Part shown: positions 7,941-29,007 of the stretch, piece after piece
Position numbering within the stretch: position 1 is the first letter of the stretch
How the letters are laid out: every line of letters begins with the position of its first letter
Assembly: GCA_038128845.1 (NCBI GenBank)
Contig: JAYPKL010000001.1
Span: 113,605 to 177,604 of the forward strand
From: Candidatus Woesearchaeota archaeon
GTDB taxonomy: Archaea > Nanobdellota > Nanobdellia > UBA10117 > ARS21
Direction: 5' to 3'
DNA: 64,000 nt
Program-made: the position numbers and the translations under genes
The notes under the pieces: model-generated
Database searches by the model: none
Seen by the model: only the letters and a program-made list of their open reading frames with translations
What the model was told of the DNA's origin: nothing

Positions 7941-8161
7941 TCAAACAATAAGTTTTATAAATTAAATTATTCTTTCTGTTAATTAGTCAAGTAATTGACA
8001 TTTCTGTGAAGGCATAGCCGGAGAGAAGCTCACACTGAGCAATGGTGAATGCCAATTACATGAATTGGTATTATGTAGATGATCAATATCATGAAATAAT
8101 TTATTATTTCGATATCCTAATACTTGTGAACAGTGAAATCTATTCATATTTTAAGTTAAGA

Positions 8162-9626
<1,465 letters not shown>

Positions 9627-9680
9627 TTTATGAGAGCACTTACGGGTGCTCTCATAGAACTATATATTGGTCATCATAAG

Positions 9681-9753
9681 GGCTTGTAGCTCAATCTGGT
9701 AGAGCGCCTGCTTTGCACGCAGGAGGTTAGGTGTTCAAATCACTTCAAGTCCA
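9681..9753 (+). tRNA. tRNA-Ala (anticodon UGC) in the 16S-23S spacer
   Basis: GGGCTTGTAGCTCAATCTGGTAGAGCGCCTGCTTTGCACGCAGGAGGTTAGGTGTTCAAATCACTTCAAGTCCA. 7-bp acceptor stem, anticodon loop CTTTGCACG. Confidence 0.85.
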
Positions 9754-9799
9754 TCTCAATCGAGAATCATTGCAATCACGATACATTATCGTGGTTAAG

Positions 9800-12675
<2,876 letters not shown>

Positions 12676-12963: not shown

Positions 12964-13113
12964 TTATTTTTTTCTTGATTTTTCTATAACTTTAAGTTGT
13001 TTCATTGGAATAAAATATTTCCAAACTTTATGTTTATTGTATCCAATTATTTTTTTAAAAAAATCTTGCCACATAAAACATATTGTTATATATCATATAT
13101 AATTATATCTCTC

Positions 13114-13584
13114 ATGTTAGAGATGCCGAAGTATTCTGTAATAAAAGAATATAATAAATTTGAAATTAGAGAATACGAACCATCTGTCTGGACAGAGGTA
13201 AAAAATAAATCAAACATATCTTCTTTTAGAATACTAGCAGATTATATTTTTGGAAATAATTCAAAAAATATCAAAATGAATATGACTGCACCTGTGAGAA
13301 TTGGAGAAAAATTCAGTTTTTTCATGGAATCAAAATATGGAAAAAATCTTCCCGTTCCAAATAATAAAGAAATAAAAATTAAATCTTATGGAAAAGAAAA
13401 GTATGCAGTGATTACATTTTCAGGTTTAACAAATGATGCTAGAGTTAAAAAATTCACAGAAATATTATATTCGGAATTAAAAAAAGAAAAAATTAAACAC
13501 ACAAAAAATTCAATTCTTGCAAGATATGACGGACCATACAAATTACCAATTTTAAGAAGAAATGAAATTATGGTAAAGTTATAA
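13114..13584 (+). CDS. SOUL/HBP heme-binding-family protein
   Basis: From internal Met (MLEMPKYSVIKEYNKFEIREYEPSVWTEV...ILADYIFGNNSKNIKMNMTAPV) the sequence matches the SOUL family signature. The 5' extension of the tracked ORF is hydrophobic junk. Confidence 0.55.
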   Translation: MLEMPKYSVIKEYNKFEIREYEPSVWTEVKNKSNISSFRILADYIFGNNSKNIKMNMTAPVRIGEKFSFFMESKYGKNLPVPNNKEIKIKSYGKEKYAVITFSGLTNDARVKKFTEILYSELKKEKIKHTKNSILARYDGPYKLPILRRNEIMVKL

Positions 13585-13617
13585 TAAACTTTATAAACTC
13601 AAATTTAATAGCCAAAA

Positions 13618-13882
13618 TAACGCAGGGAGGCAGACCGTCGGTATTTATGCTGTGGAAAGTCCACCCACTCGCGAAGTCCAGCGTAAGCGAACTTTAATCG
13701 GTTCATCTGGCAACAGAAATAAACTGCTTTGATCGCATAATGATGCTTGTCTGAAGTTGTTCAAAGTTAGGTGAGATATGTTAGATTGGATGAGTGCAAG
13801 ACCTTGAGTCGCTAAGTTAAATGTCTGCATTTACTGTCCGATTACGGAGTAAAACAAAAGGTGGCTTATATCTCTGCGTTAC
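13618..13882 (+). ncRNA. rnpB: RNase P RNA (compact form)
   Basis: GC-rich island in an AT-rich intergenic region. CR-I GGAAAGTCCACCC and CR-V ACAAAAGGTGGCTTA can form P4 with the universally conserved bulged U. Terminal P1 pairing AACGCAGGGAG / TCTCTGCGTT. Confidence 0.7.
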
Positions 13883-13902
13883 TTTTATAATAAATTAATA
13901 AA

Positions 13903-14640
13903 ATGTGTTATATGAAAAAATTCACATTATTATTTTTATTGCCCTTTTTACTAGTTTCAGTATTTGCAACAAATCACACAATTAACGAAACAATTAACGA
14001 AACAATTAACGAAACAATTAACGAAACAATTAACGAAACAACAGAAGATGACCCAGGAATTACTCCAGATTCATTTTTATGGGGAATCGAACTTGCACTT
14101 GAAAGAATACAACTTGCGTTTACATTTAATGAAGAAAGAAAGGCAGAATTAGCTTTAGAACATGCAACAGAAAGATTATTAGAAGTTCAACAAATGATTA
14201 ATGAAAATAATTTTGATGATGCAGAAAAAGCCCAAATAAGATATAATGATAAAGTATCATCATTAAATTTAGAATTTGAAGGTGCAAGTTCTGAATTTTT
14301 AGATTCAATTTATGAAGAATTTGAATTCAAATCCACCAATATACAAGATAAAATTAGAATTAAAATTGATTCAGAAGATCTTGATGAAGACAACAGAGTA
14401 AGAGCTAAAACAATTATAGAAACTATTGAAGGAGATAAATTAATCAAGATTAAAATTAAAGAAATAGCTGACGAAATTAACATACAAATTAAAGAAAAAT
14501 CATTAAGCGAAGATGATGATCTTCTAGATGATGACGATGACGACAAAAGAAAAGGAAAATCAGAAAAAGACGATGACGATGACAGAAAAGGAAAATCAGA
14601 AAAAGATGACGATGATGATGACGAAGCTTCTGATGACTAA
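13903..14640 (+). CDS. secreted acidic low-complexity protein with (ETIN)x5 repeat and poly-Asp C-terminal repeats
   Basis: Signal peptide MKKFTLLFLLPFLLVSVFA. INETINETINET... . C-terminal DDDDDKRKGKSEKDDDDD x2. Confidence 0.5.
   Translation: MCYMKKFTLLFLLPFLLVSVFATNHTINETINETINETINETINETTEDDPGITPDSFLWGIELALERIQLAFTFNEERKAELALEHATERLLEVQQMINENNFDDAEKAQIRYNDKVSSLNLEFEGASSEFLDSIYEEFEFKSTNIQDKIRIKIDSEDLDEDNRVRAKTIIETIEGDKLIKIKIKEIADEINIQIKEKSLSEDDDLLDDDDDDKRKGKSEKDDDDDRKGKSEKDDDDDDEASDD
13978..14037 (+). repeat. perfect tandem repeat, 12 nt x5 (ACAATTAACGAA), in frame within the CDS
   Basis: Directly visible in sequence. Encodes TINE x5. Confidence 0.9.
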
Positions 14641-14674
14641 ATAGTTTTTTAAATTATTATTAAAACATCTCAAT

Positions 14675-14830
14675 ATGGCAAAACAAAAGAAAGTAAAGCT
14701 ACCTTCTTCACAAGGAGGAATCGTTAGCTATTCAGATAGTGATTTTTCATATATTAATATTAAACCAACAACTGTTATGGCATTTGTTGTTGTAATTACA
14801 ATTTTAGCTATCGTAGTGAGACTTTTATGA
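14675..14830 (+). CDS. secG: preprotein translocase subunit Sec61-beta (archaeal SecG)
   Basis: 51-aa ORF below the ORF-track cutoff: MAKQKKVKLPSSQGGIVSYSDSDFSYINIKPTTVMAFVVVITILAIVVRLL. Matches the archaeal Sec61beta pattern (P.SS.GL.RY.D......I.P..V + C-terminal TM). Stop overlaps the xth start (ATGA). Confidence 0.6.
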   Translation: MAKQKKVKLPSSQGGIVSYSDSDFSYINIKPTTVMAFVVVITILAIVVRLL

Positions 14831-15582
14831 AAATAATTTCATGGAATGTTAACGGAATCAGAGCCGTAATGACAAAAGGTTTTCCTGATTTTGTAAAGAA
14901 ATATAATCCAGATATCTTATGTCTTCAAGAGACAAAAGCACATCCGGATCAAGTAGATGAATTATTACATGACTATGAGCATCATTTTTGGAATTCAGCC
15001 GATAAAAAAGGATATTCTGGTACTGCCATATTCTCAAAAATTAAACCTTTAAATGTTAGTTATGGCGGTGGCATTGATGTTGGAGATACCGAAGGTAGAA
15101 TTGTAACTGCAGAGTTTGATGAATTCTTTTTAGTAAATGTTTACACTCCTAATGCAAAACGAGGATTAGCAAGATTAGATTACAGACAAGAATGGGACAA
15201 ATTATTTTATGCGTATCTTAAAGAATTAGAAAAATCTAAACCGGTTATAACTTGCGGAGATTTAAATGTAGCTCATACTGAAATTGATTTAGCAAGACCA
15301 AAAAATAATACTAAAAATGCAGGATTCACACAAGAAGAAAGATCAGGTTTTCAAAGATATTTGGACGGCGGATTTTTAGACACTTTTAGAATGTTTAATC
15401 AAGATCCTGAAAACTATACTTGGTGGAGTTATATGTTTAATGCTAGAGCAAAAAATCTTGGTTGGAGAATTGATTATTTCTTAGCATCAGAAAAATTAAA
15501 GAATAATATTATTTCTGCAGAAATCTTAAACGAAGTTATGGGTTCAGATCATTGCCCGGTAACTTTAAACCTTAAATTCTAA
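14827..15582 (+). CDS. xth: exodeoxyribonuclease III / AP endonuclease
   Basis: MKIISWNVNGIRA...LCLQETK..., catalytic SDHCPV at C-terminus. 251 aa. Confidence 0.85.
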   Translation: MKIISWNVNGIRAVMTKGFPDFVKKYNPDILCLQETKAHPDQVDELLHDYEHHFWNSADKKGYSGTAIFSKIKPLNVSYGGGIDVGDTEGRIVTAEFDEFFLVNVYTPNAKRGLARLDYRQEWDKLFYAYLKELEKSKPVITCGDLNVAHTEIDLARPKNNTKNAGFTQEERSGFQRYLDGGFLDTFRMFNQDPENYTWWSYMFNARAKNLGWRIDYFLASEKLKNNIISAEILNEVMGSDHCPVTLNLKF

Positions 15583-15593
15583 ATACATATAAT

Positions 15594-15610
15594 TACATAT
15601 TTAATATGTA
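15594..15610. promoter_or_regulatory. inverted repeat TACATAT-TTA-ATATGTA upstream of RHH mini-gene (candidate operator)
   Basis: 7-bp perfect arms with a 3-nt spacer, 35 nt upstream of the RHH ORF start, in an A/T-rich promoter-like region. Confidence 0.3.
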
Positions 15611-15644
15611 GTTATATTTAAATATATGCAGTAGTTATTTCTAT

Positions 15645-15770
15645 ATGTCTAGACAACGCATATCGATAACTATCGATAAGAAGCTTTTGAATTGGGTTGA
15701 CAAGCAAGTCAAAGAAAAAAGATTTGCTAGCAGATCTCATGCATTGGAGTATTTATTAGCAAATGACTAA
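15645..15770 (+). CDS. ribbon-helix-helix (CopG/Arc-like) small DNA-binding protein, 41 aa
   Basis: MSRQRISITIDKKLLNWVDKQVKEKRFASRSHALEYLLAND: beta-strand ISITID + helix + SRSHALEYLL helix is the RHH signature. Its stop overlaps the giant-gene ATG (ATGACTAA). Not in the ORF track (<60 aa). Confidence 0.55.
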   Translation: MSRQRISITIDKKLLNWVDKQVKEKRFASRSHALEYLLAND

Positions 15771-18700
15771 GCCAAATTTTTTCCTAGGTAATTCTATTAT
15801 TGTTTTAGCTAGTTTGGTTGTTTTTATTTCTGCATTACTTTTACCATATAATCCTAATTTTGAAGGCTTCACACTAAGTGATCCTCAAGTATTAATTGAG
15901 AAATTTCCATCAAGCGTTTCACAAAGTGAAGTGCATGAGGCAGATAATAAAGTCGGTCTAACCGATTTTATTTCTGCTTTAAATTCAGGTTCTATTATTA
16001 CAGGTATGGCAGGAGGTTTACCAGGTCAATGTGCTTTAGTTAGCGAAGATCCTCAAGAAGTTGAGCAATTTTGTACTGGTTTTGTAGTACCTTTTTCAGT
16101 ATATAATGACGGTACATTCTGTTATCAAGATGCAAGGGATCCTGAAAATGCAGCTGCAAATGAATTTTATTGTAATAATGGAGAACCAAGTGCAATCGTC
16201 GGAGATTATATTGGACCGCCCTACGAACCACCACCTCCTTCTAATAATGCACCAACTTGGACACAAACAATAACTCATCCAACAGTTAATGAAGATTCAG
16301 GATCAACAATTGTTGACTCTGATTTAACTTCTAGCGGAAATGGTCAGTGTACGGATCCGGACGTCGGACAAACATTAATTTTTTCAGTTACATCAGAAAA
16401 TACTGCACAAGTTGATTGCGCAGTATCAGGTAATGCGTTAACAGTTACTCCCGCATCAAATTGGTTTGGTACAGCATCATGTACAATAACTTGTGATGAT
16501 GGAAATGGCGGAACTGCTGATGATACTCTGAGCATTACCGTAAACTCTGTGAATGATGCACCTGTTTTAACCGGAATTCCTGATCAAACACTAAGTCATA
16601 CTGCTTCATTAAATAATCTAATTGATCTTTATTCAAATCATAGCGATGTAGATGGTTCGGATGCTGCAACTACATTCACAATTAGTTCCGAAACAGATAC
16701 TTCGGTTGTAGATTGTTCTATTGATAGTGATAGATATGTTGATTGTACTTATGGAGATATGATCGGATCTTCAGATTATTCAGATATAACGATTACTGCC
16801 ACTGATGCAGGAAGCTTGACTGATACAGATACATTCAGAGTTACATTAACAAATATAGAACCAACAACAACAACTCCAACAATTTCACCAAGTTCTCCTT
16901 CTTCTGACGATGATTTAACAGGTTCAAGTTCATTAAGTGATTCGGACGGAGATTCTGTGAATTCAATTTTTGATTGGAGATTTTCCGGAACTTCATTTGC
17001 ATCATTAAATTTACCATTTGATACAAATCCTTCCAGTTCTACACTTAATGATTATACTAGTTACAATAATGATTTCACAAAAAATGGTGCCACATGGCAA
17101 AATAGCGCAACATGTGGACTAACTGGTTCAGGCGGATGTATGGAATTTGACGGTACAAACGACAGACTAACTAGAGCAGATGATTCAGATTTTGATAGCT
17201 TAACTGCATTATCTGTATGTGCATGGGTTTACCCTCACAGCTGGGGCGGAGCAACTGCTGCAGATTATATTTTTGATAAGAGACATGGTTCAAGTCCTTG
17301 GAATTCCGTGGCACTTTTTTTTCACGGAACAGGAGATAAATTAAGATTGGATTTGGGAGCAATAGACGGTACAAATTATGTTTTAGATTATGATTATCCT
17401 TCGGGAGATTTTCCAACAGGAAGTTGGCAATTTGTGTGTGGTACTTGGGATAGCACAAGTACAAATATGACAATATATTATAACGGTGCTAAAGCGAATT
17501 CAACAGGTACTACCTACGGCGGTACATTATTGGATGCAAACGATAAAGCAGTCATAGGAGTATTAGGAGATGAATTTCAGCACTGGTTTGACGGATATAT
17601 GGATAATATTCAATTTTATAACAAAGCCTTATCTTCACAACAAATTTCATCAATGTACGGTTCAGGAACTCCAAATTATGCAGTTTTAGTTTCAGAAGAA
17701 ACAAATGAGGCGGACTCAATAACTGTTACAATTACACCAAGTGATGCAATTGAAGACGGAACTTCTTCAACATCTTCTGCTTCAGTGGTTGCATCAAACT
17801 CTGCTCCAGTTGCTGCCGGTGCTTCACTTGCCGTTGATGAAGACACAACTCTTTCCGATACATTGACTGCAACAGATGCGGAGGGAGATCCATTAACTTT
17901 TTCCATAGTTTCACAAGCATCAAACGGAGTCGCTACAATTACAAACTCTGCAACTGGAGCTTTCAACTATGTTCCGGGCGCAAATTATACTGGAACAGAT
18001 TCATTTACTTTCAAAGCAAATGATGGAACAGCTGATTCGAATATTGAAACAATAAATATTTTAGTAAACCCTGTGAATGATGAACCAGTTTTAACTTCAA
18101 AATTATTATCAATTACTGGAAGTTCTCCATATTACACAACTGAATCTTTTACAGCATCTGCAACAGCATCTGATGTTGATGGAGACACATTAACATTCAT
18201 GTACGATTATAGATTTGATGGAAATTCAGACAGAGTTCTTCATTTATCTTTTGATACAAATACTTCCGAAAATTCAACCGATTATACTTCTTATTCAAAT
18301 GACGCAATAATAAATACGTCCGGAGCATATGATTCAAATGTTCATCCTGTTTGGACTTCTTCCGGAATCAAAGGAGGAGCATATGATTTTACAAATGTAG
18401 ACGATCATGATGCAGCTCATTCAAGTACAAATACTTTGAGAATTCCTTGGGATGAAAGTACATATGACTTAACTCAAGATCTATCTATTTGTTGGTGGAT
18501 GTATCCAACAAATATTGATCCTACCGGATCTACACAAGATAGACAAAACCCAATTTCAAAACATTATAGAGCAGAATTTCAATTCACGCTAGAGACCGAT
18601 GCAAGATTGAATTATTATCATGGTAATTCAAATCCAAATGGTACCACTTCAATTTATAGTTCTCACAGATTACTAAATGTTGGAGCAGTCACAGAAAATG

Positions 18701-21426
18701 ATTGGAATTTTGTTTGTATGGTCAGAGATGATTCCAACAAATGGGTATCCGGATTTTTAGACGGATCATTAAATAGAAATGAAACATATGATTTAATTGA
18801 TACTAATGACCCTTCCTTAGGTTATAGAGAACCAAATTCAGGAGCGGGAAATACATATTATGAAGATATATTAATTGGAGATGGTTATTCAAATCCGTTT
18901 ATCGGAAAAATTGATGAAGTAATGATTTGGAACAAAAAAATATCTGCAGAATATATTTTGTCAATGTATAATTCCGGAACTCCAGATTATTCAGTTTTAG
19001 TTTCACAAGAAACAAGAAAAGGAAATTATAATGTTAGCGTTACGCCTAGCGACGGAACAATTGACGGATCTTCAGGAATTACAAATACAATTGAAATTGT
19101 TAATTTGGCACCAACTTCCAGCACACCTGTTCTTCTTGCTTCAGATGATCCAGATAATAAAACAACAGCAGATTTAAGCGTAACAAACAATTTAGTAGAA
19201 CAAGATCCAGAAGATACTGAAACAAGAAGTTTCACAGAATGGTTTGTTGATTCCATTTCAACTTTAGAATTCTTTTACACTTTTTTCTTTAACTCAACTA
19301 CTGCCGAAGATTTGTCCAGTAATTCTGCAAATGGTACTTTATCCGATATAAATATGTATTACGGAACAGGCATACTTGATGGTGCAATTAATTTTGAACA
19401 AAATTCACAATATTATGTAGATTTAACTGCAAATAATTTTGATTTAACTAATGGAAAAACCCTTACTTTTTGGTATAAGTTAGCAGATAGTACAACAGTG
19501 AGTACGGGCTGTTATGCACCAAGTAGTTCTCAAGAAAGTTGTTATGGTATTTTTTCCAGCGGATCGAGTGGATCTTGGGACAATTATTTGAATTTACGTG
19601 TAGTTGGAACAAATCAAGCAGATATTCAATATGAATTACACGATGGTTCAAGCTTTGGAACACCAGGTTTTGACACAGACAGCACTTCATGGCACATGAT
19701 TGCACTTTCAATTGAATCAGGAAGTTTAAATTTATACCATGACGGACTTGTAATTGGCTCAGCACCTTTCGAAGAAGGTAAAAGAATAGACTTAAGCTAT
19801 TTAGGTATGGGATATGGAGGAGCAGATGATCCTCCTGCAAATGGTCAATTCTACGGACAATTAGACGAAGTTTCATTATTCACAAGAGCTCTACAGGGAG
19901 AACAAATTTTGGCAATTTATAATTCAGGTACTCCGTCTTATGACGAAATTGTTGCAGAAGAAACATTAAAAGGAGAAGATTGGAGCGTAGAAATAACGCC
20001 TATTGATAGAGAAGATTCAGGATCAACTGTGACCTCCAATACCGTTACTATTGAAAACACTGCACCAACAACTCCTTCAGGTTCTACATTATCGCCTTCT
20101 ACATTAAAAGTTGGAAATACATTAACAGCAACAGGAGCAGGATCAACTGACGCAGACGGAGATAGCTTAACATATTATTATGAATTTAGAAGTAATTCGG
20201 CTTCAGGAACAATACTACAAGCTTATTCAACAACCAATACTTACACAGTAGCTCAAAGTGATTCAGGAACTACAATTTATGTGAATATTAAAGCAAATGA
20301 CGCCACTGATGACTCATCTGCTGAAACTGTTTCAAAGGCAGTTTCAAATACTGCACCAACAATCGCCGGAACAGATATTACAATAAACGGTCAAGAAGAT
20401 ACAGATTTAATTTTTGGAACTGTTAATTTCACAACAAGTGCATCTTACAGTGATGCAGACGGAGATGCATTTGCAGGAATAAGAATTACGAGTGCGCCAA
20501 CAAATGGAGATTTATTTAATGGGGCAACTCAATTAACCGGTACAGGTTTACAATGTAATACGATTGTTTTGGGAGGATGTTCGGCTTATAATTTATTTGT
20601 ATCTTCATCAGATATTGCTTCAGGGAATTTTAAATTTGTACCTGACCCAAATGTTAACGGTAATACTGTTGCTGCATTCGGTTTCAATGTATATGATGGA
20701 ACAGAATATTCTTCCGGAGTTGGAACTTCAATTGTGATTAATTTAGGATCAGTTAATGATGCTCCAGTTGCTGTAGATGATGAATACTCTCTAGACTCAG
20801 GTAATACTTTAACAGTTTCAGCATCAGGCGTACTTACAAATGACTCTGATGTTGACGGAAATTCATTAACAACTGTTTTAGGAGTACCTCCTTCAGGAGC
20901 TTCAAGTTTTACACTTAACTCCGATGGAAGTTTCACATATGTTTCAGATCCAACATACTCTGGAGCCACAGATAGTTTCACGTATAGAGCAAATGACGGT
21001 TCTCTTAATTCGAATGTGGCAAATGTTACGATAAATCTTGCTAAAACAATTTCAATTGCACTTTCAAATTCACTTTCTACTGCTTTGACATTTAGTGCTT
21101 CACAAGCAAATGCCCAATTCAGCGGATCGGGTAATGACGATTATCATGTTAACTTAACTGCAAATGGAACAGCAGCAAATTTATCAATTAAAGCATCAGG
21201 TCCTTTATCTGACGGCGGATCAAACTCAATTGCATTATCAAATTTCAAATATAATTATACTGGATCATCAACTCCAGTAGCATTATCAACTTCAGAAACA
21301 AATACAACTAAATCATTTGCAGGTGTCTTAAAACAAACATTCTTTGAATTTTTTATAGACGTCCCAGCTAGCCAATCTGCAGGAACTTATACAAATACCA
21401 TTACATTTAGAGGTGAAACCTTGTAA
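15763..21426 (+). CDS. giant cell-surface protein (1887 aa): N-terminal signal anchor, three LamG/concanavalin-A-like modules, cadherin-like/VCBS-type repeats
   Basis: N-terminal TM (IIVLASLVVFISALLL). Three ~450-aa paralogous modules each ending in the Laminin_G_3 hallmark (MDNIQFYNKALSSQQISSMYGSGTPNY; IDEVMIWNKKISAEYILSMYNSGTPDY; LDEVSLFTRALQGEQILAIYNSGTPSY). Repeated VNDAPV/VNDEPV and DAPVAVDD...TNDSDVDGNSL motifs (cadherin-like/VCBS adhesin repeats). Thr/Ser/Asp-rich. Confidence 0.8.
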   Translation: MTKPNFFLGNSIIVLASLVVFISALLLPYNPNFEGFTLSDPQVLIEKFPSSVSQSEVHEADNKVGLTDFISALNSGSIITGMAGGLPGQCALVSEDPQEVEQFCTGFVVPFSVYNDGTFCYQDARDPENAAANEFYCNNGEPSAIVGDYIGPPYEPPPPSNNAPTWTQTITHPTVNEDSGSTIVDSDLTSSGNGQCTDPDVGQTLIFSVTSENTAQVDCAVSGNALTVTPASNWFGTASCTITCDDGNGGTADDTLSITVNSVNDAPVLTGIPDQTLSHTASLNNLIDLYSNHSDVDGSDAATTFTISSETDTSVVDCSIDSDRYVDCTYGDMIGSSDYSDITITATDAGSLTDTDTFRVTLTNIEPTTTTPTISPSSPSSDDDLTGSSSLSDSDGDSVNSIFDWRFSGTSFASLNLPFDTNPSSSTLNDYTSYNNDFTKNGATWQNSATCGLTGSGGCMEFDGTNDRLTRADDSDFDSLTALSVCAWVYPHSWGGATAADYIFDKRHGSSPWNSVALFFHGTGDKLRLDLGAIDGTNYVLDYDYPSGDFPTGSWQFVCGTWDSTSTNMTIYYNGAKANSTGTTYGGTLLDANDKAVIGVLGDEFQHWFDGYMDNIQFYNKALSSQQISSMYGSGTPNYAVLVSEETNEADSITVTITPSDAIEDGTSSTSSASVVASNSAPVAAGASLAVDEDTTLSDTLTATDAEGDPLTFSIVSQASNGVATITNSATGAFNYVPGANYTGTDSFTFKANDGTADSNIETINILVNPVNDEPVLTSKLLSITGSSPYYTTESFTASATASDVDGDTLTFMYDYRFDGNSDRVLHLSFDTNTSENSTDYTSYSNDAIINTSGAYDSNVHPVWTSSGIKGGAYDFTNVDDHDAAHSSTNTLRIPWDESTYDLTQDLSICWWMYPTNIDPTGSTQDRQNPISKHYRAEFQFTLETDARLNYYHGNSNPNGTTSIYSSHRLLNVGAVTENDWNFVCMVRDDSNKWVSGFLDGSLNRNETYDLIDTNDPSLGYREPNSGAGNTYYEDILIGDGYSNPFIGKIDEVMIWNKKISAEYILSMYNSGTPDYSVLVSQETRKGNYNVSVTPSDGTIDGSSGITNTIEIVNLAPTSSTPVLLASDDPDNKTTADLSVTNNLVEQDPEDTETRSFTEWFVDSISTLEFFYTFFFNSTTAEDLSSNSANGTLSDINMYYGTGILDGAINFEQNSQYYVDLTANNFDLTNGKTLTFWYKLADSTTVSTGCYAPSSSQESCYGIFSSGSSGSWDNYLNLRVVGTNQADIQYELHDGSSFGTPGFDTDSTSWHMIALSIESGSLNLYHDGLVIGSAPFEEGKRIDLSYLGMGYGGADDPPANGQFYGQLDEVSLFTRALQGEQILAIYNSGTPSYDEIVAEETLKGEDWSVEITPIDREDSGSTVTSNTVTIENTAPTTPSGSTLSPSTLKVGNTLTATGAGSTDADGDSLTYYYEFRSNSASGTILQAYSTTNTYTVAQSDSGTTIYVNIKANDATDDSSAETVSKAVSNTAPTIAGTDITINGQEDTDLIFGTVNFTTSASYSDADGDAFAGIRITSAPTNGDLFNGATQLTGTGLQCNTIVLGGCSAYNLFVSSSDIASGNFKFVPDPNVNGNTVAAFGFNVYDGTEYSSGVGTSIVINLGSVNDAPVAVDDEYSLDSGNTLTVSASGVLTNDSDVDGNSLTTVLGVPPSGASSFTLNSDGSFTYVSDPTYSGATDSFTYRANDGSLNSNVANVTINLAKTISIALSNSLSTALTFSASQANAQFSGSGNDDYHVNLTANGTAANLSIKASGPLSDGGSNSIALSNFKYNYTGSSTPVALSTSETNTTKSFAGVLKQTFFEFFIDVPASQSAGTYTNTITFRGETL

Positions 21427-21575
21427 TGAAATCCGTAATTACAATTTCTATAGACAAAGACTTACTAAAACGAATAGATGAAGGAATTAAAGATTATAAA
21501 TTCGCTAATAGATCGCATGGTTTTGAATACTTAATTTCTAGAGAAATATTGAAAAAGAAGGAGAGTAAAAATTAA
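21426..21575 (+). CDS. ribbon-helix-helix small protein, 49 aa, paralog of the upstream RHH
   Basis: MKSVITISIDKDLLKRIDEGIKDYKFANRSHGFEYLISREILKKKESKN. Same ISI.IDK.LL..(V/I)D......FA.RSH..EYL pattern as the 15645 ORF. Its ATG shares the A of the giant-gene TAA. The next gene starts 2 nt after its stop. Confidence 0.5.
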   Translation: MKSVITISIDKDLLKRIDEGIKDYKFANRSHGFEYLISREILKKKESKN

Positions 21576-21576
21576 T

Positions 21577-22212
21577 ATGAAAAAATTAAGTTTACTATTA
21601 ATTTTATTCTTAATTCCCTCAGGCTTTGCAGTATCTGGAGCAGGATTAAAATATAATTTTGAATATGTTGAACTTTTAGAAAAAGCAGAGCATTGTTTGA
21701 ATTATGGAGTTTACAATCCTTACGATTCAGATTCTTTAATTTCATTATCTGCAGAAGGAGATTTTCAAGACTATGTAATTGAAAGTGAACCAACAAATGT
21801 TCCTGCAAATACAAATGCAAATAATGAATTAAGAAAAGATATTTGTTTTAAAATTCCAAAAATAGTTGAGTCTTGTGAAGAAGGTAAAGTTCTTGAAGGT
21901 CAAATTATCGCTTCAACTTCACCAAGTACTGAAGGAATCGGAACTGCACTTGCTGTTTCTGCACCGCTAGAGATGAAAGTTAATTGTAATGATTCGTCTC
22001 AAGTAAATTTAATTTATTTTGTAATTCCTTTTATAATTATTTCAACACTTGTTGGATTATTCCAATTTAGAAAAAATTCACGAACTAAAAAATATAATTC
22101 TCTTTATTCCGAACTTATGTTTCTTCATAAAAAAATAAGTTCAGGAAACTTTGATCAATCTCATGTTGATAGATTTAACAAATTACGTTCTATTTTGATT
22201 AATTTCAAATAA
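21577..22212 (+). CDS. secreted protein with C-terminal TM anchor and short cytoplasmic tail
   Basis: Signal peptide MKKLSLLLILFLIPSGFAVSGA. C-terminal helix LIYFVIPFIIISTLVGLFQF followed by basic residues. Confidence 0.45.
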   Translation: MKKLSLLLILFLIPSGFAVSGAGLKYNFEYVELLEKAEHCLNYGVYNPYDSDSLISLSAEGDFQDYVIESEPTNVPANTNANNELRKDICFKIPKIVESCEEGKVLEGQIIASTSPSTEGIGTALAVSAPLEMKVNCNDSSQVNLIYFVIPFIIISTLVGLFQFRKNSRTKKYNSLYSELMFLHKKISSGNFDQSHVDRFNKLRSILINFK

Positions 22213-22288
22213 TTTTTTTATGTATTTGTTAAGTATATTAACAATAAATTATATATACTAATTATTTGTTAATATTATTAACAATTGG

Positions 22289-22774
22289 GTGGATAGTTTG
22301 AAGAATAACTTGTCAGATAGACATATTTACGTATTTAGCACTAGAAACCTCTCTGCAACTGAACGTGTAAAATTTCATTATGCTCTCAGGGGAAGAAATA
22401 ATCCCGGTATTCTTGAACAAACAAACTCAAAATATTTATCCAAAACAATTATTGAAACATCTGAAAAAAATACAAAAACTATAGCTGAATTTCTAGAAAA
22501 TTGGAATTGTTCTTATAATCTTCTAAAATTATCCAAAGGTAAATCACATCTTCTTGTGAAGTATTCTACCACCCAATTGAATTCTACACAATTAGTACAA
22601 TTTACTTACGGACTTTATGGAAGAAGCAAACCAGGTTTGATAAAAAAAGATTCTAAAGAGAAACTTTCCAAAGGTTATTTTTTACTAAAAAAAGATAACA
22701 GCAAAGAAATTTTAGAATTTTTGAACCACTGGAATTGTGAATTATTAATTGAGGAGGTGGATTTAAATGAATAA
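22289..22774 (+). CDS. cytoplasmic protein built from two tandem copies of an uncharacterised ~70-aa domain
   Basis: Copy 1 HIYVFSTRNLSATERVKFHYALRGRNNPGIL...EFLENWNCSYNLLKL. Copy 2 HLLVKYSTTQLNSTQLVQFTYGLYGRSKPGLI...EFLNHWNCELLIEEV. No TM. Confidence 0.45.
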   Translation: MDSLKNNLSDRHIYVFSTRNLSATERVKFHYALRGRNNPGILEQTNSKYLSKTIIETSEKNTKTIAEFLENWNCSYNLLKLSKGKSHLLVKYSTTQLNSTQLVQFTYGLYGRSKPGLIKKDSKEKLSKGYFLLKKDNSKEILEFLNHWNCELLIEEVDLNE

Positions 22775-23537
22775 TAACCAACTCAATTACAAAAGAAACG
22801 AATTAATTGGTAAACATAATCGAAGACTTAAGAGAATAACTTTACTAAACCAACAACTTAAAGCAGGTTTAATTACTTACGAAGAATATTCAAGAAGATA
22901 TGATGAGTTAACAAACAATAAACCAATTTCACATCATGAAAATCTTCTGAATAGAAGACTGGATCAAATTAGTAATCTAGGTTATAGAGAAAAGAGTAAG
23001 ATAAAGTTACTTCCATTAATCTTTGGACTAATTATGTTACCGGCATTAATTGGAATTGGAATAACCGGATTTGCAACTACTGGCGATCAAGATGTTACTG
23101 CAACATTAACAATTAGCAATAACATTGCAGGAAGTTTAAGTTATTCGGGAGTAACATTTACAGATACTAATTTACTTGGCGATAATAATGCTACTTTGAA
23201 TAATCTTGGAAGTTCAGCACCAGGATATACAATTGAGCTAGATGACAGTACGACTGTGAATAATCTCAATGTATGTATTAATGGTACAGATTTAACTTCT
23301 GGATCAAATACAATTGATGTAAGCAGGATAGAAGTATCTTCAAGCTTAACTGGAAGTTCAACAATACCGGCAAAGAGTTCAAGTATTGATTTATCCACCT
23401 CAAGACAAGAAATAGAAGGAGACTTGGATGCGGGAGAAACTCTTTACCAAAGATATTGGTTAGATTTAAGCGGAGGTACACAAACTGGAACATATACTGG
23501 TACATCCGAAATATTAATTACAGAAAATGCATGTTAA
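22767..23537 (+). CDS. bitopic membrane protein: cytoplasmic coiled N-domain, one TM, Thr/Ser-rich extracellular domain
   Basis: TM LLPLIFGLIMLPALIGIGITGF then ATTGDQDVTATLTISNN... . Overlaps the upstream gene by 8 nt. Confidence 0.45.
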   Translation: MNNNQLNYKRNELIGKHNRRLKRITLLNQQLKAGLITYEEYSRRYDELTNNKPISHHENLLNRRLDQISNLGYREKSKIKLLPLIFGLIMLPALIGIGITGFATTGDQDVTATLTISNNIAGSLSYSGVTFTDTNLLGDNNATLNNLGSSAPGYTIELDDSTTVNNLNVCINGTDLTSGSNTIDVSRIEVSSSLTGSSTIPAKSSSIDLSTSRQEIEGDLDAGETLYQRYWLDLSGGTQTGTYTGTSEILITENAC

Positions 23538-23598
23538 AGAAAAATTTGATAAAATATTCAATTTTTTATCAATAATCTTTTATATAAAAAATAAATAT

Positions 23599-23808
23599 AT
23601 GATTATGAATAACAAAAATATGTACGCGTATATATTGTTAGGAGCTGTTTTATTAGCAGGTGTTGCCGGATATATGATGGCAGACCAAGCAGATTCTGAC
23701 ACAGTTATTTTGCCAGACACCAATGAAGTGTTAATTACTGTTACAATAGCAGGTAATTCACTTGATGCAGATGTCACTACGGAGGATAATTATGGCTCGA
23801 GCACGTAG
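23599..23808 (+). CDS. small signal-anchored secreted peptide
   Basis: MIMNNKNMYAYILLGAVLLAGVAGYMMADQADSDTVILPDT... . Likely start at internal Met of the tracked 93-aa ORF. Overlaps the next gene. Confidence 0.3.
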   Translation: MIMNNKNMYAYILLGAVLLAGVAGYMMADQADSDTVILPDTNEVLITVTIAGNSLDADVTTEDNYGSST

Positions 23809-24346
23809 AAATGATGATATGATGAAACTTGCAGCAATTTCTGCAGCAGTTTCATTAGTAGTTGTTTTAGTTTTTTTTGGAGGTACATTGACAGGAAATT
23901 CTTCTACTGATGTAACTCTAACTACAACTATTGCTGCCACTACAACATGTACATTTAATGAAACAGCCGTAACTTTCGGAGCTTTAAATCTTGAAACAAA
24001 TTCTCAATCTCCTGATGCAGGTGATATTATTGAAGTTGTCAACGACGGTTCTACAATCGTAAATATGACTGCTGCTTTAAATCAAACTGCAACAAGTTTA
24101 TTGGGTACTACTACTGGAACTTCTGCATTGGATATAGCCGTTACAGCTGAATCAGGTACTGCAAGCAGTTTAACTGCCTTAGGAACATCAGCAACAGATG
24201 CTGTTACTTTGTTATTACCTGACGATGCAACAGATGCAGTAACACTTACGACCACTATTGACGTAGGTGGAGGAGCATCTAATGTAGGTATAGCAAATGA
24301 AGCACTAATTTCATTTGTTTGTACCGCAGATGTTGACGGAAGTTAA
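23792..24346 (+). CDS. secreted Thr-rich protein with N-terminal signal anchor
   Basis: GGAGGA SD-like then MARARRNDDMMKLAAISAAVSLVVVLVFFGGTLTGNSSTDVTLTTTIAATTT... . Low-complexity T/A/S-rich ectodomain. Confidence 0.45.
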   Translation: MARARRNDDMMKLAAISAAVSLVVVLVFFGGTLTGNSSTDVTLTTTIAATTTCTFNETAVTFGALNLETNSQSPDAGDIIEVVNDGSTIVNMTAALNQTATSLLGTTTGTSALDIAVTAESGTASSLTALGTSATDAVTLLLPDDATDAVTLTTTIDVGGGASNVGIANEALISFVCTADVDGS

Positions 24347-24874
24347 TTGGTAAAATTAAAATTTAGGAGTATCTTTTGGATACTTCTTATTTTTTTTTCA
24401 ATAAATCATGTTTTTTCTTATTCTTTACTCGGACCTCATGAAACATTCACAGTAATTCCTGAAAAAAAATATTCTGGAGAAATATGTATTGGCGCATTCG
24501 GCGATCAAGATTTATTTAATAGAACTTTTCTATATTCATTTGAAAGTAATGATACTGTATTTGTTAATTTCACAATGGACAAAGAAGTAACATCAGATAA
24601 ACGAGATAAATTTTGTAATTCTTATTATTTTTTTGGCGGAGAGTATACTTCTTCAGTAAGTAAAAGTCCTGCTGCTGCAATATTGGTTTCCGAAAAAGTA
24701 GATAGCGGTATTGTTATGGGATACAAAAGAATCATATATGCGGATACTTCTTCTGTGACTTATCGACACGCACTTATCAATCTTTCAAAAAATTTTATTT
24801 TTGTTTTTGTATCTATATTTTCAGTTTTTGGATTAATATTATATATTTTAAAAAAGAATAAATTTAATGAATAA
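24347..24874 (+). CDS. secreted protein with C-terminal TM anchor
   Basis: N-terminal hydrophobic FWILLIFFSINHVFS. C-terminal helix FIFVFVSIFSVFGLILYIL + KKNK. Confidence 0.4.
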   Translation: MVKLKFRSIFWILLIFFSINHVFSYSLLGPHETFTVIPEKKYSGEICIGAFGDQDLFNRTFLYSFESNDTVFVNFTMDKEVTSDKRDKFCNSYYFFGGEYTSSVSKSPAAAILVSEKVDSGIVMGYKRIIYADTSSVTYRHALINLSKNFIFVFVSIFSVFGLILYILKKNKFNE

Positions 24875-26204
24875 AAATATATTATTAGTATTTTCTTTAA
24901 CAATTGTTTTTTCAATTTTTTTCACATCATCAATTATAACGGGCTTATCAACTTATCAAATCAATTTATCTACAAATATAAATCCAATTTATTGGGAAGA
25001 AGAGATCCCCAATATTATAATTTTTCAAAATTCAAGTAGTTTTATTGTTGATTCAGATTTAAGTAATTCAGGTAACGGGTTTTGTAATTCATATAGCGAT
25101 CAAGACAATACAACATTTACAATATCGGATGAGTCTTCTTCAAAAGTTGATTGTAATATAGATGATGTTAAGTTATCGATTATTCCAAATAGCTCTTTTG
25201 CAGGTAGTACTGTTTGTGAAGTTACTTGTAATGAATTTAATTTTTCTGAATCAATTAATTTCACAATAAATGTTTTAGAAGATTTAGAACCAGAATCTGA
25301 AGTTGTTGTAGTAAGTTCTGGCGGAGGCGGAGGCGGAGGAATATCCCGAGCTCAATTAGCGAATATTCTTGGTCAAAATAATATTTTTAATATTGCCATA
25401 AATCCAGAGTCAATTAAACTTAAGTTACGTCCAGGGGAGACTATAAGTGAAATAATTAGTATTGAAAATAAATTAGATAAAATTTATGATATAAACATTC
25501 AAGAAAACACCTTAGTTTCTTATGTAAACATTAAAAATGAACATAGTTTAGAACCAAAATCTACAATAAAAATTCCAATTGAAATTGGAGTACCATTAAA
25601 TGAGTATAGATCAATTATTACAGGTACAATTGATTTTGATGAATATACGGATCTTGCAGTTGTTATAGAAGTTATAAATCCTTTATTAAATCCCGATTCA
25701 CAGCAAGAAGTTGAATTATTAGTTACTTTAGGAACAGACTATATATCTCCAACTCTAATATTCACAGGAGAAATTGATAAGAAAAATATACTTCCAGGTA
25801 CATTACTTAAGCCTAGGATAAAACTTACTGAGTTTTATCAATCAGGATATCCCGAAATAAGTCTCACTTATTATTTATTTGATATGAATAATAATGAATT
25901 GCTCTCATTTACTGACTATTATAAGACTTATGATGACAGAACTCTGAGCATTTTGTTACCTGAAGATATTCCTTTAGGTGAATATGCTCTCACTTTTGAA
26001 GCAAAATATGGTAATTTTGTTTCTAGGAATACTCAAACACTCCAAATAGTATCAAGTAAAGGTTTACTAACTGATGAATTAATAATCCTCACTTTGATGG
26101 TGGGTGTTATGGCTTATTCCATATATGCAGTATCAACTAGACGAAAACGGGGCGGAAATAAACGAAATAAACAAAAAACTAATGCTAAATTAATTTATCA
26201 TTAA
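24867..26204 (+). CDS. surface protein sharing an N-terminal domain with the giant protein; Gly7 linker; C-terminal TM + basic tail
   Basis: DSDLSNSGNGFCNSYSDQDNTTFTISDESSSKVDCNIDD...STVCEVTCNEF aligns with the giant protein segment DSDLTSSGNGQCTDPDVGQTLIFSVTSENTAQVDCAVSG...ASCTITCDDGNG. SSGGGGGGG linker. TM LIILTLMVGVMAYSIYAV then RRKRGGNKRNKQ. Confidence 0.55.
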   Translation: MNKNILLVFSLTIVFSIFFTSSIITGLSTYQINLSTNINPIYWEEEIPNIIIFQNSSSFIVDSDLSNSGNGFCNSYSDQDNTTFTISDESSSKVDCNIDDVKLSIIPNSSFAGSTVCEVTCNEFNFSESINFTINVLEDLEPESEVVVVSSGGGGGGGISRAQLANILGQNNIFNIAINPESIKLKLRPGETISEIISIENKLDKIYDINIQENTLVSYVNIKNEHSLEPKSTIKIPIEIGVPLNEYRSIITGTIDFDEYTDLAVVIEVINPLLNPDSQQEVELLVTLGTDYISPTLIFTGEIDKKNILPGTLLKPRIKLTEFYQSGYPEISLTYYLFDMNNNELLSFTDYYKTYDDRTLSILLPEDIPLGEYALTFEAKYGNFVSRNTQTLQIVSSKGLLTDELIILTLMVGVMAYSIYAVSTRRKRGGNKRNKQKTNAKLIYH

Positions 26205-26222
26205 ATAAAATTTTTTTTTGTT

Positions 26223-26474
26223 AACTCTCACTTTAGATTTATTATAAAATAATCTAGGCTAATAGTATAATAAGAGTAATTATCTCATTTTTATTCAATA
26301 GATATACTAACTCTTGACAATTTTAATTAATTATATTACTACTAAATATAACTCTCACTTTATTATTACAATCTATACTTGCATAGTTTGATCCAAATAA
26401 GAAGAGATATTTGAATATATTTTACGGTTTTTTTCAAAGATATTTTAACTTTATATTATCTAACTCTCACTTTA
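26223..26474. repeat. three dispersed copies of AACTCTCACTTTA in a 520-bp noncoding region
   Basis: Copies at 26223-26235, 26350-26362 and 26462-26474, each followed by A/T-rich sequence. Confidence 0.7.
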
Positions 26475-26627
26475 AACTTGTTATTTTGTGACTAATTTAG
26501 AGGCACTTTATCTATTATTTACTATTAATTTATATTAAATTTGGATCTATTTTTCTTACTCATTGTTCACTTTTTACGTATTTTTTAAAATTTGGAAATT
26601 TTTAGTAAATATTTTAATAAACTATTG

Positions 26628-26721
26628 TTAAACATATGATAAACACGTGATAAACACTTGATAAACATGTGTTAAACACATTAAACACGTGATAAACACA
26701 TTAAACACGTGATAAACACAT
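26628..26721 (+). promoter_or_regulatory. iteron-like tandem array, ~9 units of TAAACAC(G/A)TG with embedded CACGTG palindromes, ending 4 nt before the ATG at 26726
   Basis: TTAAACATATGA TAAACACGTGA TAAACACTTGA TAAACATGTGT TAAACACAT TAAACACGTGA TAAACACAT TAAACACGTGA TAAACACAT. A 20-mer TAAACACATTAAACACGTGA is repeated. Confidence 0.6.
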
Positions 26722-26725
26722 AAAA

Positions 26726-27241
26726 ATGGTGATAAAAACCGTATTACGGAAAGTATTTAGGAAAAAAACTAAAAAGAACTCTAAAAAAGAAGTAAAAGAT
26801 CACAAAGTTCTAAGTTCTTGGGAAGATATGTATGAAGAATTACAAGAACATCCATTAACTCAAGCCAAAATAATTAATGAAACTTTATTTAAGAACACAA
26901 ATAACGCAATTGAAAAAATAAACATTAGATTAGATGGCATTGATGATAGATTAACAAGACTTGAAAAAAGAAAAGTTAAATCAGGTTCTGAAGAAGTTAT
27001 TGTAGTTAAAGAAGAATCAGATGTTTTAATCAAGCCAATTTTAGATAAAGGAAGATTATCTGATCAAGAAGAATTAATTCTAGAAATGATTAAAGAACAA
27101 GGAGAGGTTGATGCTAAATCAGTTTCCAATAAATTTGATATATCCAGAGGTAATGCAAGCCTTAAATTAAACAAGCTTCATGATTTTGGTTTATTAAGTA
27201 AAAGAATGGATGATAAGACTGTATTTTATTTATTAAAATAA
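26726..27241 (+). CDS. putative DNA-binding protein with C-terminal winged helix-turn-helix
   Basis: Basic N-terminus (KVFRKKTKKNSKK), central coiled coil, C-terminal ELILEMIKEQGEVDAKSVSNKFDISRGNASLKLNKLHDFGLLSKR (wHTH-like). Confidence 0.4.
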   Translation: MVIKTVLRKVFRKKTKKNSKKEVKDHKVLSSWEDMYEELQEHPLTQAKIINETLFKNTNNAIEKINIRLDGIDDRLTRLEKRKVKSGSEEVIVVKEESDVLIKPILDKGRLSDQEELILEMIKEQGEVDAKSVSNKFDISRGNASLKLNKLHDFGLLSKRMDDKTVFYLLK

Positions 27242-27259
27242 CTAATTTTTTATTAAAAC

Positions 27260-28060
27260 TTATAATAAATCTAAAGGTGACTTTATTTTCTTTAATTCTT
27301 GGTTTGAAAGATGAGTATATACTTGCGTTGTATTAAGATTAGAATGCCCGAGAAGTGCCTGTATTTTTCTTATATCTGTGCCGTTTTCAAGTAGATGTGT
27401 TGCAAAGCTATGTCTTAAGGTATGTACATGTACATCTTTTTTTATTCCTGCTGCATTTGCACATTCTTTTACTACTTTTTGTATGTATCTTTTTGAAACA
27501 GGTTTATTTTCAAATCTTCCAGGAAAAAGATATCCTTCATGTGCAGCTAATATGGGTTTTAAGTCTTTGATCAAGTCATCTGATAAAATTATCATTCGAT
27601 CTTTCTGCCCTTTACCTTTTCTAACCCATCCAATTTTTTCTTTTATTTCAAAATCATTTGTTGTTATTTTTTGTATCTCCGATAGTCTTAAACCGGATGA
27701 ATACAATAGTTTAATTAATAATTTATGCTTCTTGTCTTTTGCAGAATTAATAAGTGCTCTAACTTCATCTATTTGAAGCACAGAGGGTAGGGTAAAAGGT
27801 ATTTTAGGGGCCTTGATTTTGATGTTTTTACCTAAAACATCTCTGTAATAAAATATTAGTGCAGATCTAACTAATGAAACAGATCTTGCAGAATATTTTT
27901 TTGTAATGAGAGATCCTAGATATTCTTTAAGATCATTTTCTGTTATATTCTTTGGATCTTTATTAATTTCATCAAGAAATTTTTTATTATGACTTAAGTA
28001 TGATTTAATTGTTTCCGGACTAAATCCTCTCATTTTTAGTTCAGATTCTAATCGATACAT
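27260..28060 (-). CDS. XerA/XerCD-family tyrosine recombinase (integrase)
   Basis: C-terminal catalytic signature HTLRHSFATHLLENGTDIRKIQALLGHSNLNTTQVYTHL with upstream R...K residues. N-terminal SAM-like core-binding domain. 266 aa. Confidence 0.8.
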   Translation of the reverse strand: MYRLESELKMRGFSPETIKSYLSHNKKFLDEINKDPKNITENDLKEYLGSLITKKYSARSVSLVRSALIFYYRDVLGKNIKIKAPKIPFTLPSVLQIDEVRALINSAKDKKHKLLIKLLYSSGLRLSEIQKITTNDFEIKEKIGWVRKGKGQKDRMIILSDDLIKDLKPILAAHEGYLFPGRFENKPVSKRYIQKVVKECANAAGIKKDVHVHTLRHSFATHLLENGTDIRKIQALLGHSNLNTTQVYTHLSNQELKKIKSPLDLL

Positions 28061-28154
28061 ATAGTATATTATATTAAATTATTATAAAATTAACGAGTTC
28101 GTATAATATACATTAGACGAACAAACTATATTTTAGCTTTATTTTACATTTTTA

Positions 28155-28331
28155 TTAATTAATTACAATATTGTAAATAAATATATTAAATTTTAATAAT
28201 TTATTATAACTTTTAATACGATATAACTGAATTAAAATTAATCAAAAATTTACAATTATTAATTACAATATTGAAAATAAATAAAGAAAATATTAATTAA
28301 TTACAATATTGAAAATAAATACAAATAAATA
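28155..28331. repeat. three copies of TTAATTACAATATTG(T/A)AAATAAATA; first copy contains the perfect 14-bp palindrome TTACAATATTGTAA
   Basis: Copies start near 28159, 28258 and 28298, in the divergent intergenic region between the recombinase gene and the 28352 ORF. Confidence 0.6.
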
Positions 28332-28351
28332 ATTTGTAATTATTATTATAT

Positions 28352-28789: not shown

Positions 28790-29007
28790 AAAAATTATTC
28801 GGAATTATAGAAATAAGCTATAGCTCAGAAGGAAATAAATTTTGTTTTAAAAAATTATTACAAAAAGGAATTTTTTTTAATAAATATGGAGAACCTCAGT
28901 TCACTAGATCTAAAAATTTACAAGAATTACATAAAAAAATTAAATTAGGTTATAGATCAACAAAATTAGAAATTAAAAAATTAAAAGTATATGAAATAAT
29001 TAAGTAA
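28786..29007 (+). CDS. hypothetical small basic protein
   Basis: 73 aa, Lys-rich, coupled to the upstream ORF. Confidence 0.25.
   Translation: MKKLFGIIEISYSSEGNKFCFKKLLQKGIFFNKYGEPQFTRSKNLQELHKKIKLGYRSTKLEIKKLKVYEIIK

Follow-up and report, generated by a model that had tools for sequence, protein, structure and literature searches.

The stretch of DNA analyzed here, a 64,000-nt window from Candidatus Woesearchaeota archaeon (assembly GCA_038128845.1, contig JAYPKL010000001.1, positions 113,605 to 177,604 of the forward strand), is AT-rich and archaeal and encodes MCM, Topo VI and HerA; its nearest GTDB relatives are Woesearchaeota/Nanoarchaeota metagenome-assembled genomes, and close relatives stem from marine samples of TARA and JGI. 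Our subject is a locus in which two very short genes for ribbon-helix-helix (RHH) proteins, RHH1 and RHH2, lie immediately 5' and 3' of a gene for a giant surface protein, with the gene for a smaller protein, p211, directly behind RHH2. The features of this first predicted transcription unit, unit 1, are as follows.

15645-15770, + strand: RHH1, 41 aa, first cistron of unit 1; sequence MSRQRISITIDKKLLNWVDKQVKEKRFASRSHALEYLLAND; beta strand RISITID, helices 12-23 and 30-40
15763-21426, + strand: giant surface-protein open reading frame (ORF), 1887 aa, a 5.7-kb gene
21426-21575, + strand: RHH2, 49 aa; sequence MKSVITISIDKDLLKRIDEGIKDYKFANRSHGFEYLISREILKKKESKN; beta strand VITISID, Lys-rich tail of ~9 residues
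21577-22212, + strand: p211, 211 aa, with a predicted signal peptide and C-terminal transmembrane (TM) segment; last gene of unit 1
22213-22219, + strand: T7 run directly 3' of the p211 stop, resembling an archaeal terminator

The ORF coordinates, the overlapping stop and start codons, the place of p211 directly after RHH2 and the position of a palindrome upstream of RHH1 are all as given in the original prediction, which a model had made from the letters alone. The giant ATG lies within ATGACTAA, 8 nt ahead of the end of RHH1, so that the RHH1 stop and the giant start overlap. The last A of the giant TAA is shared with the RHH2 ATG (TAATG), and a one-base spacer separates the RHH2 stop from the p211 start. 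These overlaps had been taken for a special feature of the locus, a view that we do not share, as they are frequent in this genome (9 of 47 same-strand neighbor pairs).

The giant protein carries an N-terminal TM anchor followed by an xGF motif, then three Laminin_G_3 domains, cadherin-like/Big_9 domains and a conserved C-terminal beta domain, and has orthologues of 1075-1761 aa in four related loci (L001, L012, L056 and L060). p211 matched no Pfam or NCBIfam family, and all members of the window's clade have it coupled directly to RHH2. The order ExoIII-RHH-giant-RHH-p211-p161-p256 and onward is kept in L001, a divergent relative, and in four GTDB genomes (L012, L056, L060 and fragments). Junctions overlap throughout this clade, with the giant-RHH2 junction ranging from -20 to +1 nt.

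RHH fold and family membership

Both micro-ORFs are real genes that encode RHH proteins. RHH1 has orthologues in L001, L012, L056 and L060, and dN/dS, the ratio of nonsynonymous to synonymous substitution rates, is ~0.08-0.27 in unsaturated orthologue pairs, far below 1 for RHH1 and RHH2 alike (for example, 0.057/0.75 for RHH1 of L001 against L012, and 0.069/0.86 for RHH2 of L012 against L049). The conservation anticipated by the original prediction was thus found when genomes were searched for homologous loci. An AlphaFold2 (AF2) model of RHH1 reached a predicted local distance difference test score (pLDDT) of 88, with residues 1-11 extended and the two helices listed above, and ends one residue past helix 2. 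Foldseek placed ParD2, an RHH antitoxin, and NikR RHH domains at the top of its matches (TMq 0.67-0.85, with 0.79 at a root-mean-square deviation of 0.9). The model and these matches display the beta-strand-helix-helix topology that the RHH superfamily packs into ~45 residues, and the RHH assignment, proposed earlier from the sequence pattern, stands for both peptides.

The two proteins had also been called paralogues, and this too is borne out: a tblastn search of the window aligns them over 36 aa at 47% identity (E = 3e-9), and they are the sole two copies of the family that it recovered. Each belongs to a separate orthologous group, with 69% identity within each group and 47% between them, and the groups differ in the beta strand and the start of helix 2. 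Because the groups are this distinct, the duplication is old, with both copies maintained.

Members of the wider family share the signature KERITITIDKxLLxWLDxxIxxKxFANRSHGFEYLI. A scan with a family hidden Markov model of 60 loci plus the window (61 sequences) gave 86 ORF matches, 71 of them distinct, and a profile search of 1.84 billion cluster representatives returned 886 proteins at E <= 1e-3, those listed being mostly 41-90 aa long. Against the PDB, a profile of 42 members matched the RHH domain of E. coli NikR best (E = 1.4e-4), followed by P. horikoshii NikR, CopG and CcdA. NikR N-terminal models were matched by 40 of the 42 members, with only the first 35-47 positions covered in models 129-148 positions long, and Pfam RHH_1 was matched by 15 of 42 at E <= 0.01. 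We class RHH1 and RHH2 as stand-alone RHH proteins, with a predicted DNA-binding role, that belong to a DPANN/Thaumarchaeota family; its RHH domain most resembles the N-terminal domain of NikR. The thaumarchaeal members are solitary genes. The sole bacterial match, on a Berkelbacteria contig (L055, 10001-10609), has 202 aa and carries a C-terminal domain of ~160 aa fused to the RHH module.

Annotation of these genes is uneven. A protein identical to RHH2 exists at JGI and NCBI, under the JGI name [quoted passage not shown] and the 41-aa RHH1 gene is called in one JGI contig and overlooked in another. A mobile or viral origin was considered and rejected: one relative only was found among 2.9 million viral contigs, and the GC content of the region is accounted for by the amino-acid composition of the giant protein.

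RHH-led giant genes and the predicted P1 operator

The family recurs beside giant surface-protein genes in other DPANN genomes, where the original prediction had proposed to look for it. Twenty-five further DPANN loci outside the window's clade carry it, mostly as one RHH gene or a tandem pair directly 5' of a very large ORF with an N-terminal TM anchor, the stop and start codons usually overlapping. Our context counts cover 30 DPANN loci, the window included, and define a giant as at least 800 aa or truncated by a contig end. The gene right after RHH is a giant in 21 of 34 cases, whereas of the 341 remaining genes of these loci only 19 reach that size (Fisher 5e-15, a figure that, like the other Fisher test below, overstates independence because the loci share descent). 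Tandem RHH-RHH pairs stand right upstream of a giant in L014, L018, L019, L020, L022, L024, L025, L027, L031, L032, L036 and L037, and single-RHH loci also occur (L017, L029 and L044).

The giants led by RHH genes span at least five unrelated domain classes. LamG/cadherin proteins characterize the window's clade, and most loci carry CarboxypepD_reg repeats fused to a HerA/FtsK-type ATPase; LVIVD repeats (L017), TSP3/Big_13/fn3 (L044) and Big_9 (L027) are found elsewhere. In four loci, RHH leads an ABC ATPase and large permease-like proteins, the first of which, in L015, has a CARDB domain. Because giant-RHH(RHH)-giant arrays are frequent (L014, L016, L020, L022, L024 and L037), an RHH gene located 3' of a giant is normally the leader of the gene that follows. 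Thus, the special RHH-giant-RHH sandwich of the original prediction does not hold up: across DPANN, each RHH gene or tandem pair leads whichever gene lies directly 3' of it. RHH2 is better read as the leader of p211, and the apparent sandwich as two consecutive RHH-led cistron pairs in one predicted transcription unit.

A fusion of a TM anchor, CarboxypepD_reg/PEGA repeats and a C-terminal HerA/FtsK/VirD4-like P-loop ATPase is the commonest RHH-led giant elsewhere in DPANN. Such unions of surface domains with a translocase-type ATPase lie in L016 (3397-7647 and 8318-12583), L022 (10260-14123), L025 (1850-5689), L029 (10138-14544), L036 (10279-14442) and L018 (10358-13576). Both giants of L016 are preceded by RHH-small ORF-RHH, and the two small ORFs (3009-3218, 69 aa; 7799-8098, 99 aa) have the motif CESxHYKCATHWLRLNN in common.

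The presumed promoter of unit 1, P1, has three recognizable elements.

15584-15610, no strand assigned: predicted distal operator of 7-bp boxes TACATAT (15584-15590), TACATAT (15594-15600) and ATATGTA (15604-15610) in exact 10-bp phasing
15617-15624, + strand: TATA-like element TTTAAATA, 21-28 nt 5' of the RHH1 ATG, with a likely promoter role
15624-15630, + strand: degenerate proximal box ATATGCA, overlapping the 3' edge of the TATA-like element and one mismatch further from the consensus

The 7-3-7 palindrome TACATATTTAATATGTA (15594-15610), 34 nt before the RHH1 ATG, consists of the last two distal boxes. The same distal architecture is found in L001, L012, L056 and L060 (TACATAC-tta-GTATGTA); a TATA-like stretch occupies the equivalent place in related loci; and L001, L012 and L056 have ATATGTA at -26/-24, equivalent to the proximal box of the window. 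Since the TATA-like element lies so close to the RHH1 ATG (15645), the RHH1 mRNA is probably leaderless or has a very short leader.

Copies of GTATGTA/TACATAC lie upstream of the first RHH gene in almost every locus, in many DPANN loci at -11 to -28. The heptad is enriched ~60-fold over the locus background. In a separate count, RHH promoters (4.1 kb) contained 32 copies and the remaining intergenic DNA (43.6 kb) three. Of 47 pairs of neighboring boxes, 21 show a spacing of exactly 10 bp, in inverted or direct orientation, and pairs phased in this way are present in 17 of 30 RHH promoters, compared with 3 of 150 intergenic regions elsewhere (Fisher 4e-13). L017 supplies one of the three: RHH is the second gene there, and the boxes stand at the operon promoter instead. 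Thaumarchaeal members keep the 7-3-7 geometry with another heptad (ATCCTAC-N3-GTAGGAT). Despite the shared ancestry of the loci, the heptad signal persists across giant classes and two phyla.

The palindrome that had been pointed out near RHH1 is therefore best described as a predicted local copy of a conserved operator, in which GTATGTA-type heptads are phased by 10 bp around the TATA box. Its geometry alone is not rare: the window holds 27 perfect 7-3-7 palindromes, compared with ~12 in local shuffles, and the pattern with up to three mismatches has seven matches in the window against 3.2 expected. No further convincing copy of the P1 operator was found in the window. It is only its conservation in other genomes that makes the window palindrome convincing.

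Proposed autoregulation and its alternatives

Our results are best explained by a model in which RHH1 and RHH2 lead a four-gene unit under P1 and RHH proteins repress their own operon, a reading that we consider probable. P1 (~15584-15644) would drive RHH1, the giant adhesin gene, RHH2 and p211 as one transcript ending at the T7 run. RHH dimers would occupy, on one face of the DNA, the 10-bp-phased GTATGTA-type heptads that flank and overlap the P1 TATA box, and bound RHH would limit access of the TATA-binding protein and transcription factor B (TFB) to P1. The predicted outcome is negative autoregulation, with repression rather than activation, of a costly 5.7-kb surface-protein gene. The conserved, 10-bp-phased heptads at the family's own promoters give only indirect support to the expected binding by a dimer with its two-stranded sheet in the major groove. 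A dedicated regulatory role in surface-protein expression, one of the options raised in the original prediction, is thus the best reading of the locus. RHH2 would be an old paralogue, in its own orthologous group, that leads p211; it may act with RHH1 on P1, act on a second promoter downstream (P2, below) or simply be the p211 leader.

Several observations weigh against this model. The boxes in the window are degenerate, with ATATGTA and ATATGCA in place of GTATGTA, and 13 of the 30 RHH promoters have no phased pair at the threshold used. The shared descent of the loci, noted above, also tempers the counts. Pfam RHH_1 scores for the window peptides (16.9 and 17.8) fall under the gathering cut-off of 20.5. 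RHH2 of the window is without the beta-strand Arg that other members have (KSVITISID), and it may bind weakly or have another target. Finally, boxes upstream of the TATA element, as in the window's clade, are also compatible with activation.

Among characterized RHH proteins, NikR is the closest in sequence, and the R-x-T-x-T of the beta strand is identical to that of E. coli NikR (QRVTITL). The NikR operator half-site is GTATGAT (PMC545781, PMC7055735), of the same type as the GTATGTA of the family described here. In contrast, RHH1 and RHH2 (41 and 49 aa) end after helix 2, where NikR continues into an ACT-like nickel-binding tetramerization domain, and NikR half-sites are 13-16 bp apart (PMC545781), compared with a 3-bp spacer and 10-bp phasing here. 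No nickel transporter was found in the neighborhood. The lack of a metal-binding domain and the different box spacing indicate that RHH1 and RHH2 are not NikR.

CopG of pMV158, Arc/Mnt and omega of pSM19035 offer a nearer parallel in size and genetic logic: each is a minimal RHH protein of ~45 aa (CopG chains in the PDB have 45 residues) and the first gene of the operon it represses, as we propose here, and their operators are made of short repeated boxes in direct or inverted orientation. Omega of pSM19035 reads 7-bp heptads. Unlike these proteins, the present family is chromosomal and archaeal, uses promoters with a TATA box and TFB recognition element, shows 10-bp box phasing and stands before giant envelope genes rather than replication or partition genes. 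Small archaeal RHH regulators are also known in aCcr1 of Sulfolobales and CdrS of Halobacteria. cdrS is co-transcribed with its target ftsZ2 (PMC7439475), the same leader-gene logic as RHH-giant, whereas the proposed targets here are envelope genes. Membership in either group was rejected: aCcr1_fam was matched by 1 of 42 members (best 15.9 bits against a cut-off of 60, over the beta strand only), and there are no adjacent ftsZ or cdv genes; for FtsZ this holds in the window and in every related locus. CdrS has been reported in every major archaeal group except DPANN (PMC7439475).

Unit 1 and a second unit, p161-p256-p93-p194-p175-p445, are separated on the basis of the T7 run and a predicted promoter, P2, that follow p211.

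22226-22284, no strand assigned: P2, predicted second promoter, with two perfect TTGTTAA-N5-TTAACAA palindromes (22226-22244 and 22266-22284) around TATA-like AAATTATATATA (22246-22257)
22289-22774, + strand: p161, first gene of unit 2; internal duplication; no predicted signal peptide or TM segment
22767-23537, + strand: p256, unit 2; predicted membrane or secreted protein
23527-23808, + strand: p93, unit 2
23762-24346, + strand: p194, unit 2; predicted membrane or secreted protein
24347-24874, + strand: p175, unit 2; predicted membrane or secreted protein
24867-26204, + strand: p445, unit 2; predicted membrane or secreted protein

T-runs lie at the site equivalent to that of the T7 run in L012, L049, L056, L057, L059 and L060 and not in L001. 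The two P2 palindromes are the only perfect TTGTTAA-N5-TTAACAA copies in the window, and the layout is kept as GTTAACA-N2/3-(G)TTAACA pairs flanking a TATA box in L001, L012, L056, L057, L059 and L060. Unit 2 thus appears to have an operator of its own, of a type different from that of P1.

This arrangement suggests a two-step relay in which RHH1 autoregulates P1 and RHH2, encoded behind the 5.7-kb giant and made only once that gene has been fully transcribed, binds the P2 palindromes and so couples p161-p445 to adhesin expression. Palindromes flanking a TATA box are an RHH-operator-like architecture, conserved here in the clade; RHH1 and RHH2 have been kept as distinct groups that differ in their beta strands and helix-2 starts; and NikR-type RHH domains in other lineages read GTGTTAC-type half-sites (PMC545781). 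However, the P2 boxes, RHH2 and the p161 operon have all been inherited together, p161 or the winged helix-turn-helix protein encoded at 26726-27241 could equally be the P2 regulator, and the P2 boxes are unchanged in the window even though its RHH2 is without the Arg. We therefore regard the relay as possible but unlikely. It is improbable, too, that RHH1 and RHH2 form a hetero-oligomer on P1, as descendants of a tandem RHH-RHH that once preceded the giant and was later split by it. Tandem pairs directly before a giant in the 12 loci listed above, together with three or four boxes at P1 that leave room for more than one dimer, are consistent with such a history. Tandem partners elsewhere, however, resemble each other more than either RHH1 or RHH2, so a single ancient split pair is not demonstrated; moreover, RHH2 is always coupled to p211 in leader-like fashion, and loci with a single RHH gene exist.

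We see little prospect for a model of independent units, in which a promoter within the giant's 3' end would drive RHH2-p211 and RHH2 would have no functional tie to the giant. In other lineages, the giant-RHH spacer is 72-140 nt long and has its own TATA element and boxes (L014, L020, L022 and L037), whereas the junctions of the window's clade (-20 to +1 nt) leave no such spacer, and no conserved TATA element or heptad pair was found in the last 110 nt of the clade's giant genes. The AT-rich stretches at these 3' ends encode conserved FF(I/L)xVP and GTYT motifs. The original prediction had also raised an addiction-like module, with the RHH peptides as antitoxins. Their fold is common to the ParD, CcdA and MazE antitoxins, ParD2 tops the Foldseek list, weak NCBIfam matches to MazE/ParD exist, and the leader position with overlapping codons resembles toxin-antitoxin operons. 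Nevertheless, the genes that follow encode the anchored giant of 1887 aa and the secreted p211 rather than small cytoplasmic toxins of the ParE/RelE/PIN/MazF/CcdB type; RHH1 stops after helix 2 with no toxin-binding C-terminal extension and RHH2 adds just its short Lys-rich tail; searches with Pfam, NCBIfam and the defence database PADLOC found no toxin family in the cluster; and viral contigs carry hardly any members of the family. Lacking a toxin partner, a tail to bind one and any PADLOC match, RHH1 and RHH2 do not look like antitoxins, and this idea comes close to being refuted. Autorepression of P1 by the RHH family remains the model that we prefer.

Neighboring features and biological meaning

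Unit 2 (22289-26204) keeps its synteny in L001, L012, L056, L060 and L062-L064, and none of its six proteins matched a known family. In p161, a ~75-aa module (YxLxGRxxxGIL...FLxxWNC) is internally duplicated; the protein has no relative in Pfam, NCBIfam or the PDB. In L021 (6614-7165), one copy of this module, ahead of a 793-aa gene, is fused to an N-terminal segment that looks, by eye, like a nucleotidyltransferase domain. p211 and p175 were compared as possible paralogues and showed no similarity. A TasA-like or archaeal-bundling-pilin-like nature for p256 and the C-terminal domain of the giant gained no clear support: the AF2 model was poor (pLDDT 58), Foldseek gave generic beta-sandwich matches only (7ueg at rank 46), and the giant C-terminus matched p256 at E = 0.01 only, even though the iterated p256 profile matches loci that carry just the giant.

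In many of these envelope proteins, an x(I/V/T)G(F/Y) motif comes immediately after a TM segment. It is seen in the window at 15763-15900 and 22767-23100 and at the N-termini of RHH-led giants in L001, L016, L022, L027, L029, L036 and L056; examples are GITGFATT in p256, FEGFT in the giant and YIGFA in L016. The shared element suggests a common sorting or processing signal, reminiscent of the signal ends of the SipW/TasA type.

Behind p445, the intergenic stretch 26204-26726 has a T10 run (26211-26220), three copies of AACTCTCACTTTA near 26222, 26352 and 26462, and a tandem array of GATAAACAC/ATTAAACACGTG units (~26636-26722) that adjoins the 5' end of a gene for a 171-aa winged-helix (ArsR/Csa3-like) protein at 26726-27241. 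These repeats may be an operator or iteron array. On the other side of the locus, just upstream of the ExoIII-like gene, a conserved 51-aa ORF (14675-14830; also in L001, L011, L012, L056 and L060) has a basic N-terminus and a C-terminal TM segment, and we take it to be Sec61-beta-like on our own reading. An archaeal RNase P RNA lies at 13619-13880 and was the only hit of a structured RNA search of 13000-29000. Further upstream, positions 8000-12000 are GC-rich (0.45-0.47, compared with 0.28 elsewhere), contain a tRNA-Ala (9680-9753) and look like a ribosomal RNA operon.

DPANN archaea are thought to attach to their hosts by means of giant surface proteins, and we know of no work on how such proteins are regulated in this group. 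In the literature on RHH/CopG proteins with DPANN, Woesearchaeota or giant surface proteins, we found no account of the present arrangement, of the family or of an association between it and giant envelope genes. Most likely, the mechanism is that of a conventional RHH autoregulator, and what is new is its consistent genomic context at giant envelope genes. Our study adds a conserved small predicted transcription factor, a defined candidate operator of GTATGTA-type heptads phased by 10 bp, and a putative target rule that points to giant envelope genes, from at least five domain classes, or to ABC transporters. A 41-aa protein and a 60-bp probe would suffice to test the proposed regulation directly. 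There is also a lesson for annotation, as some pipelines overlook a 41-aa gene.

If the relay were true, the downstream envelope operon would be tied to completed adhesin expression; on a broader reading of it, the RHH family would be the master regulator dedicated to the giant proteins with which DPANN archaea contact their hosts. The small factor, its candidate operator and the target rule also offer a route to envelope and host-interaction genes in uncultured genomes.

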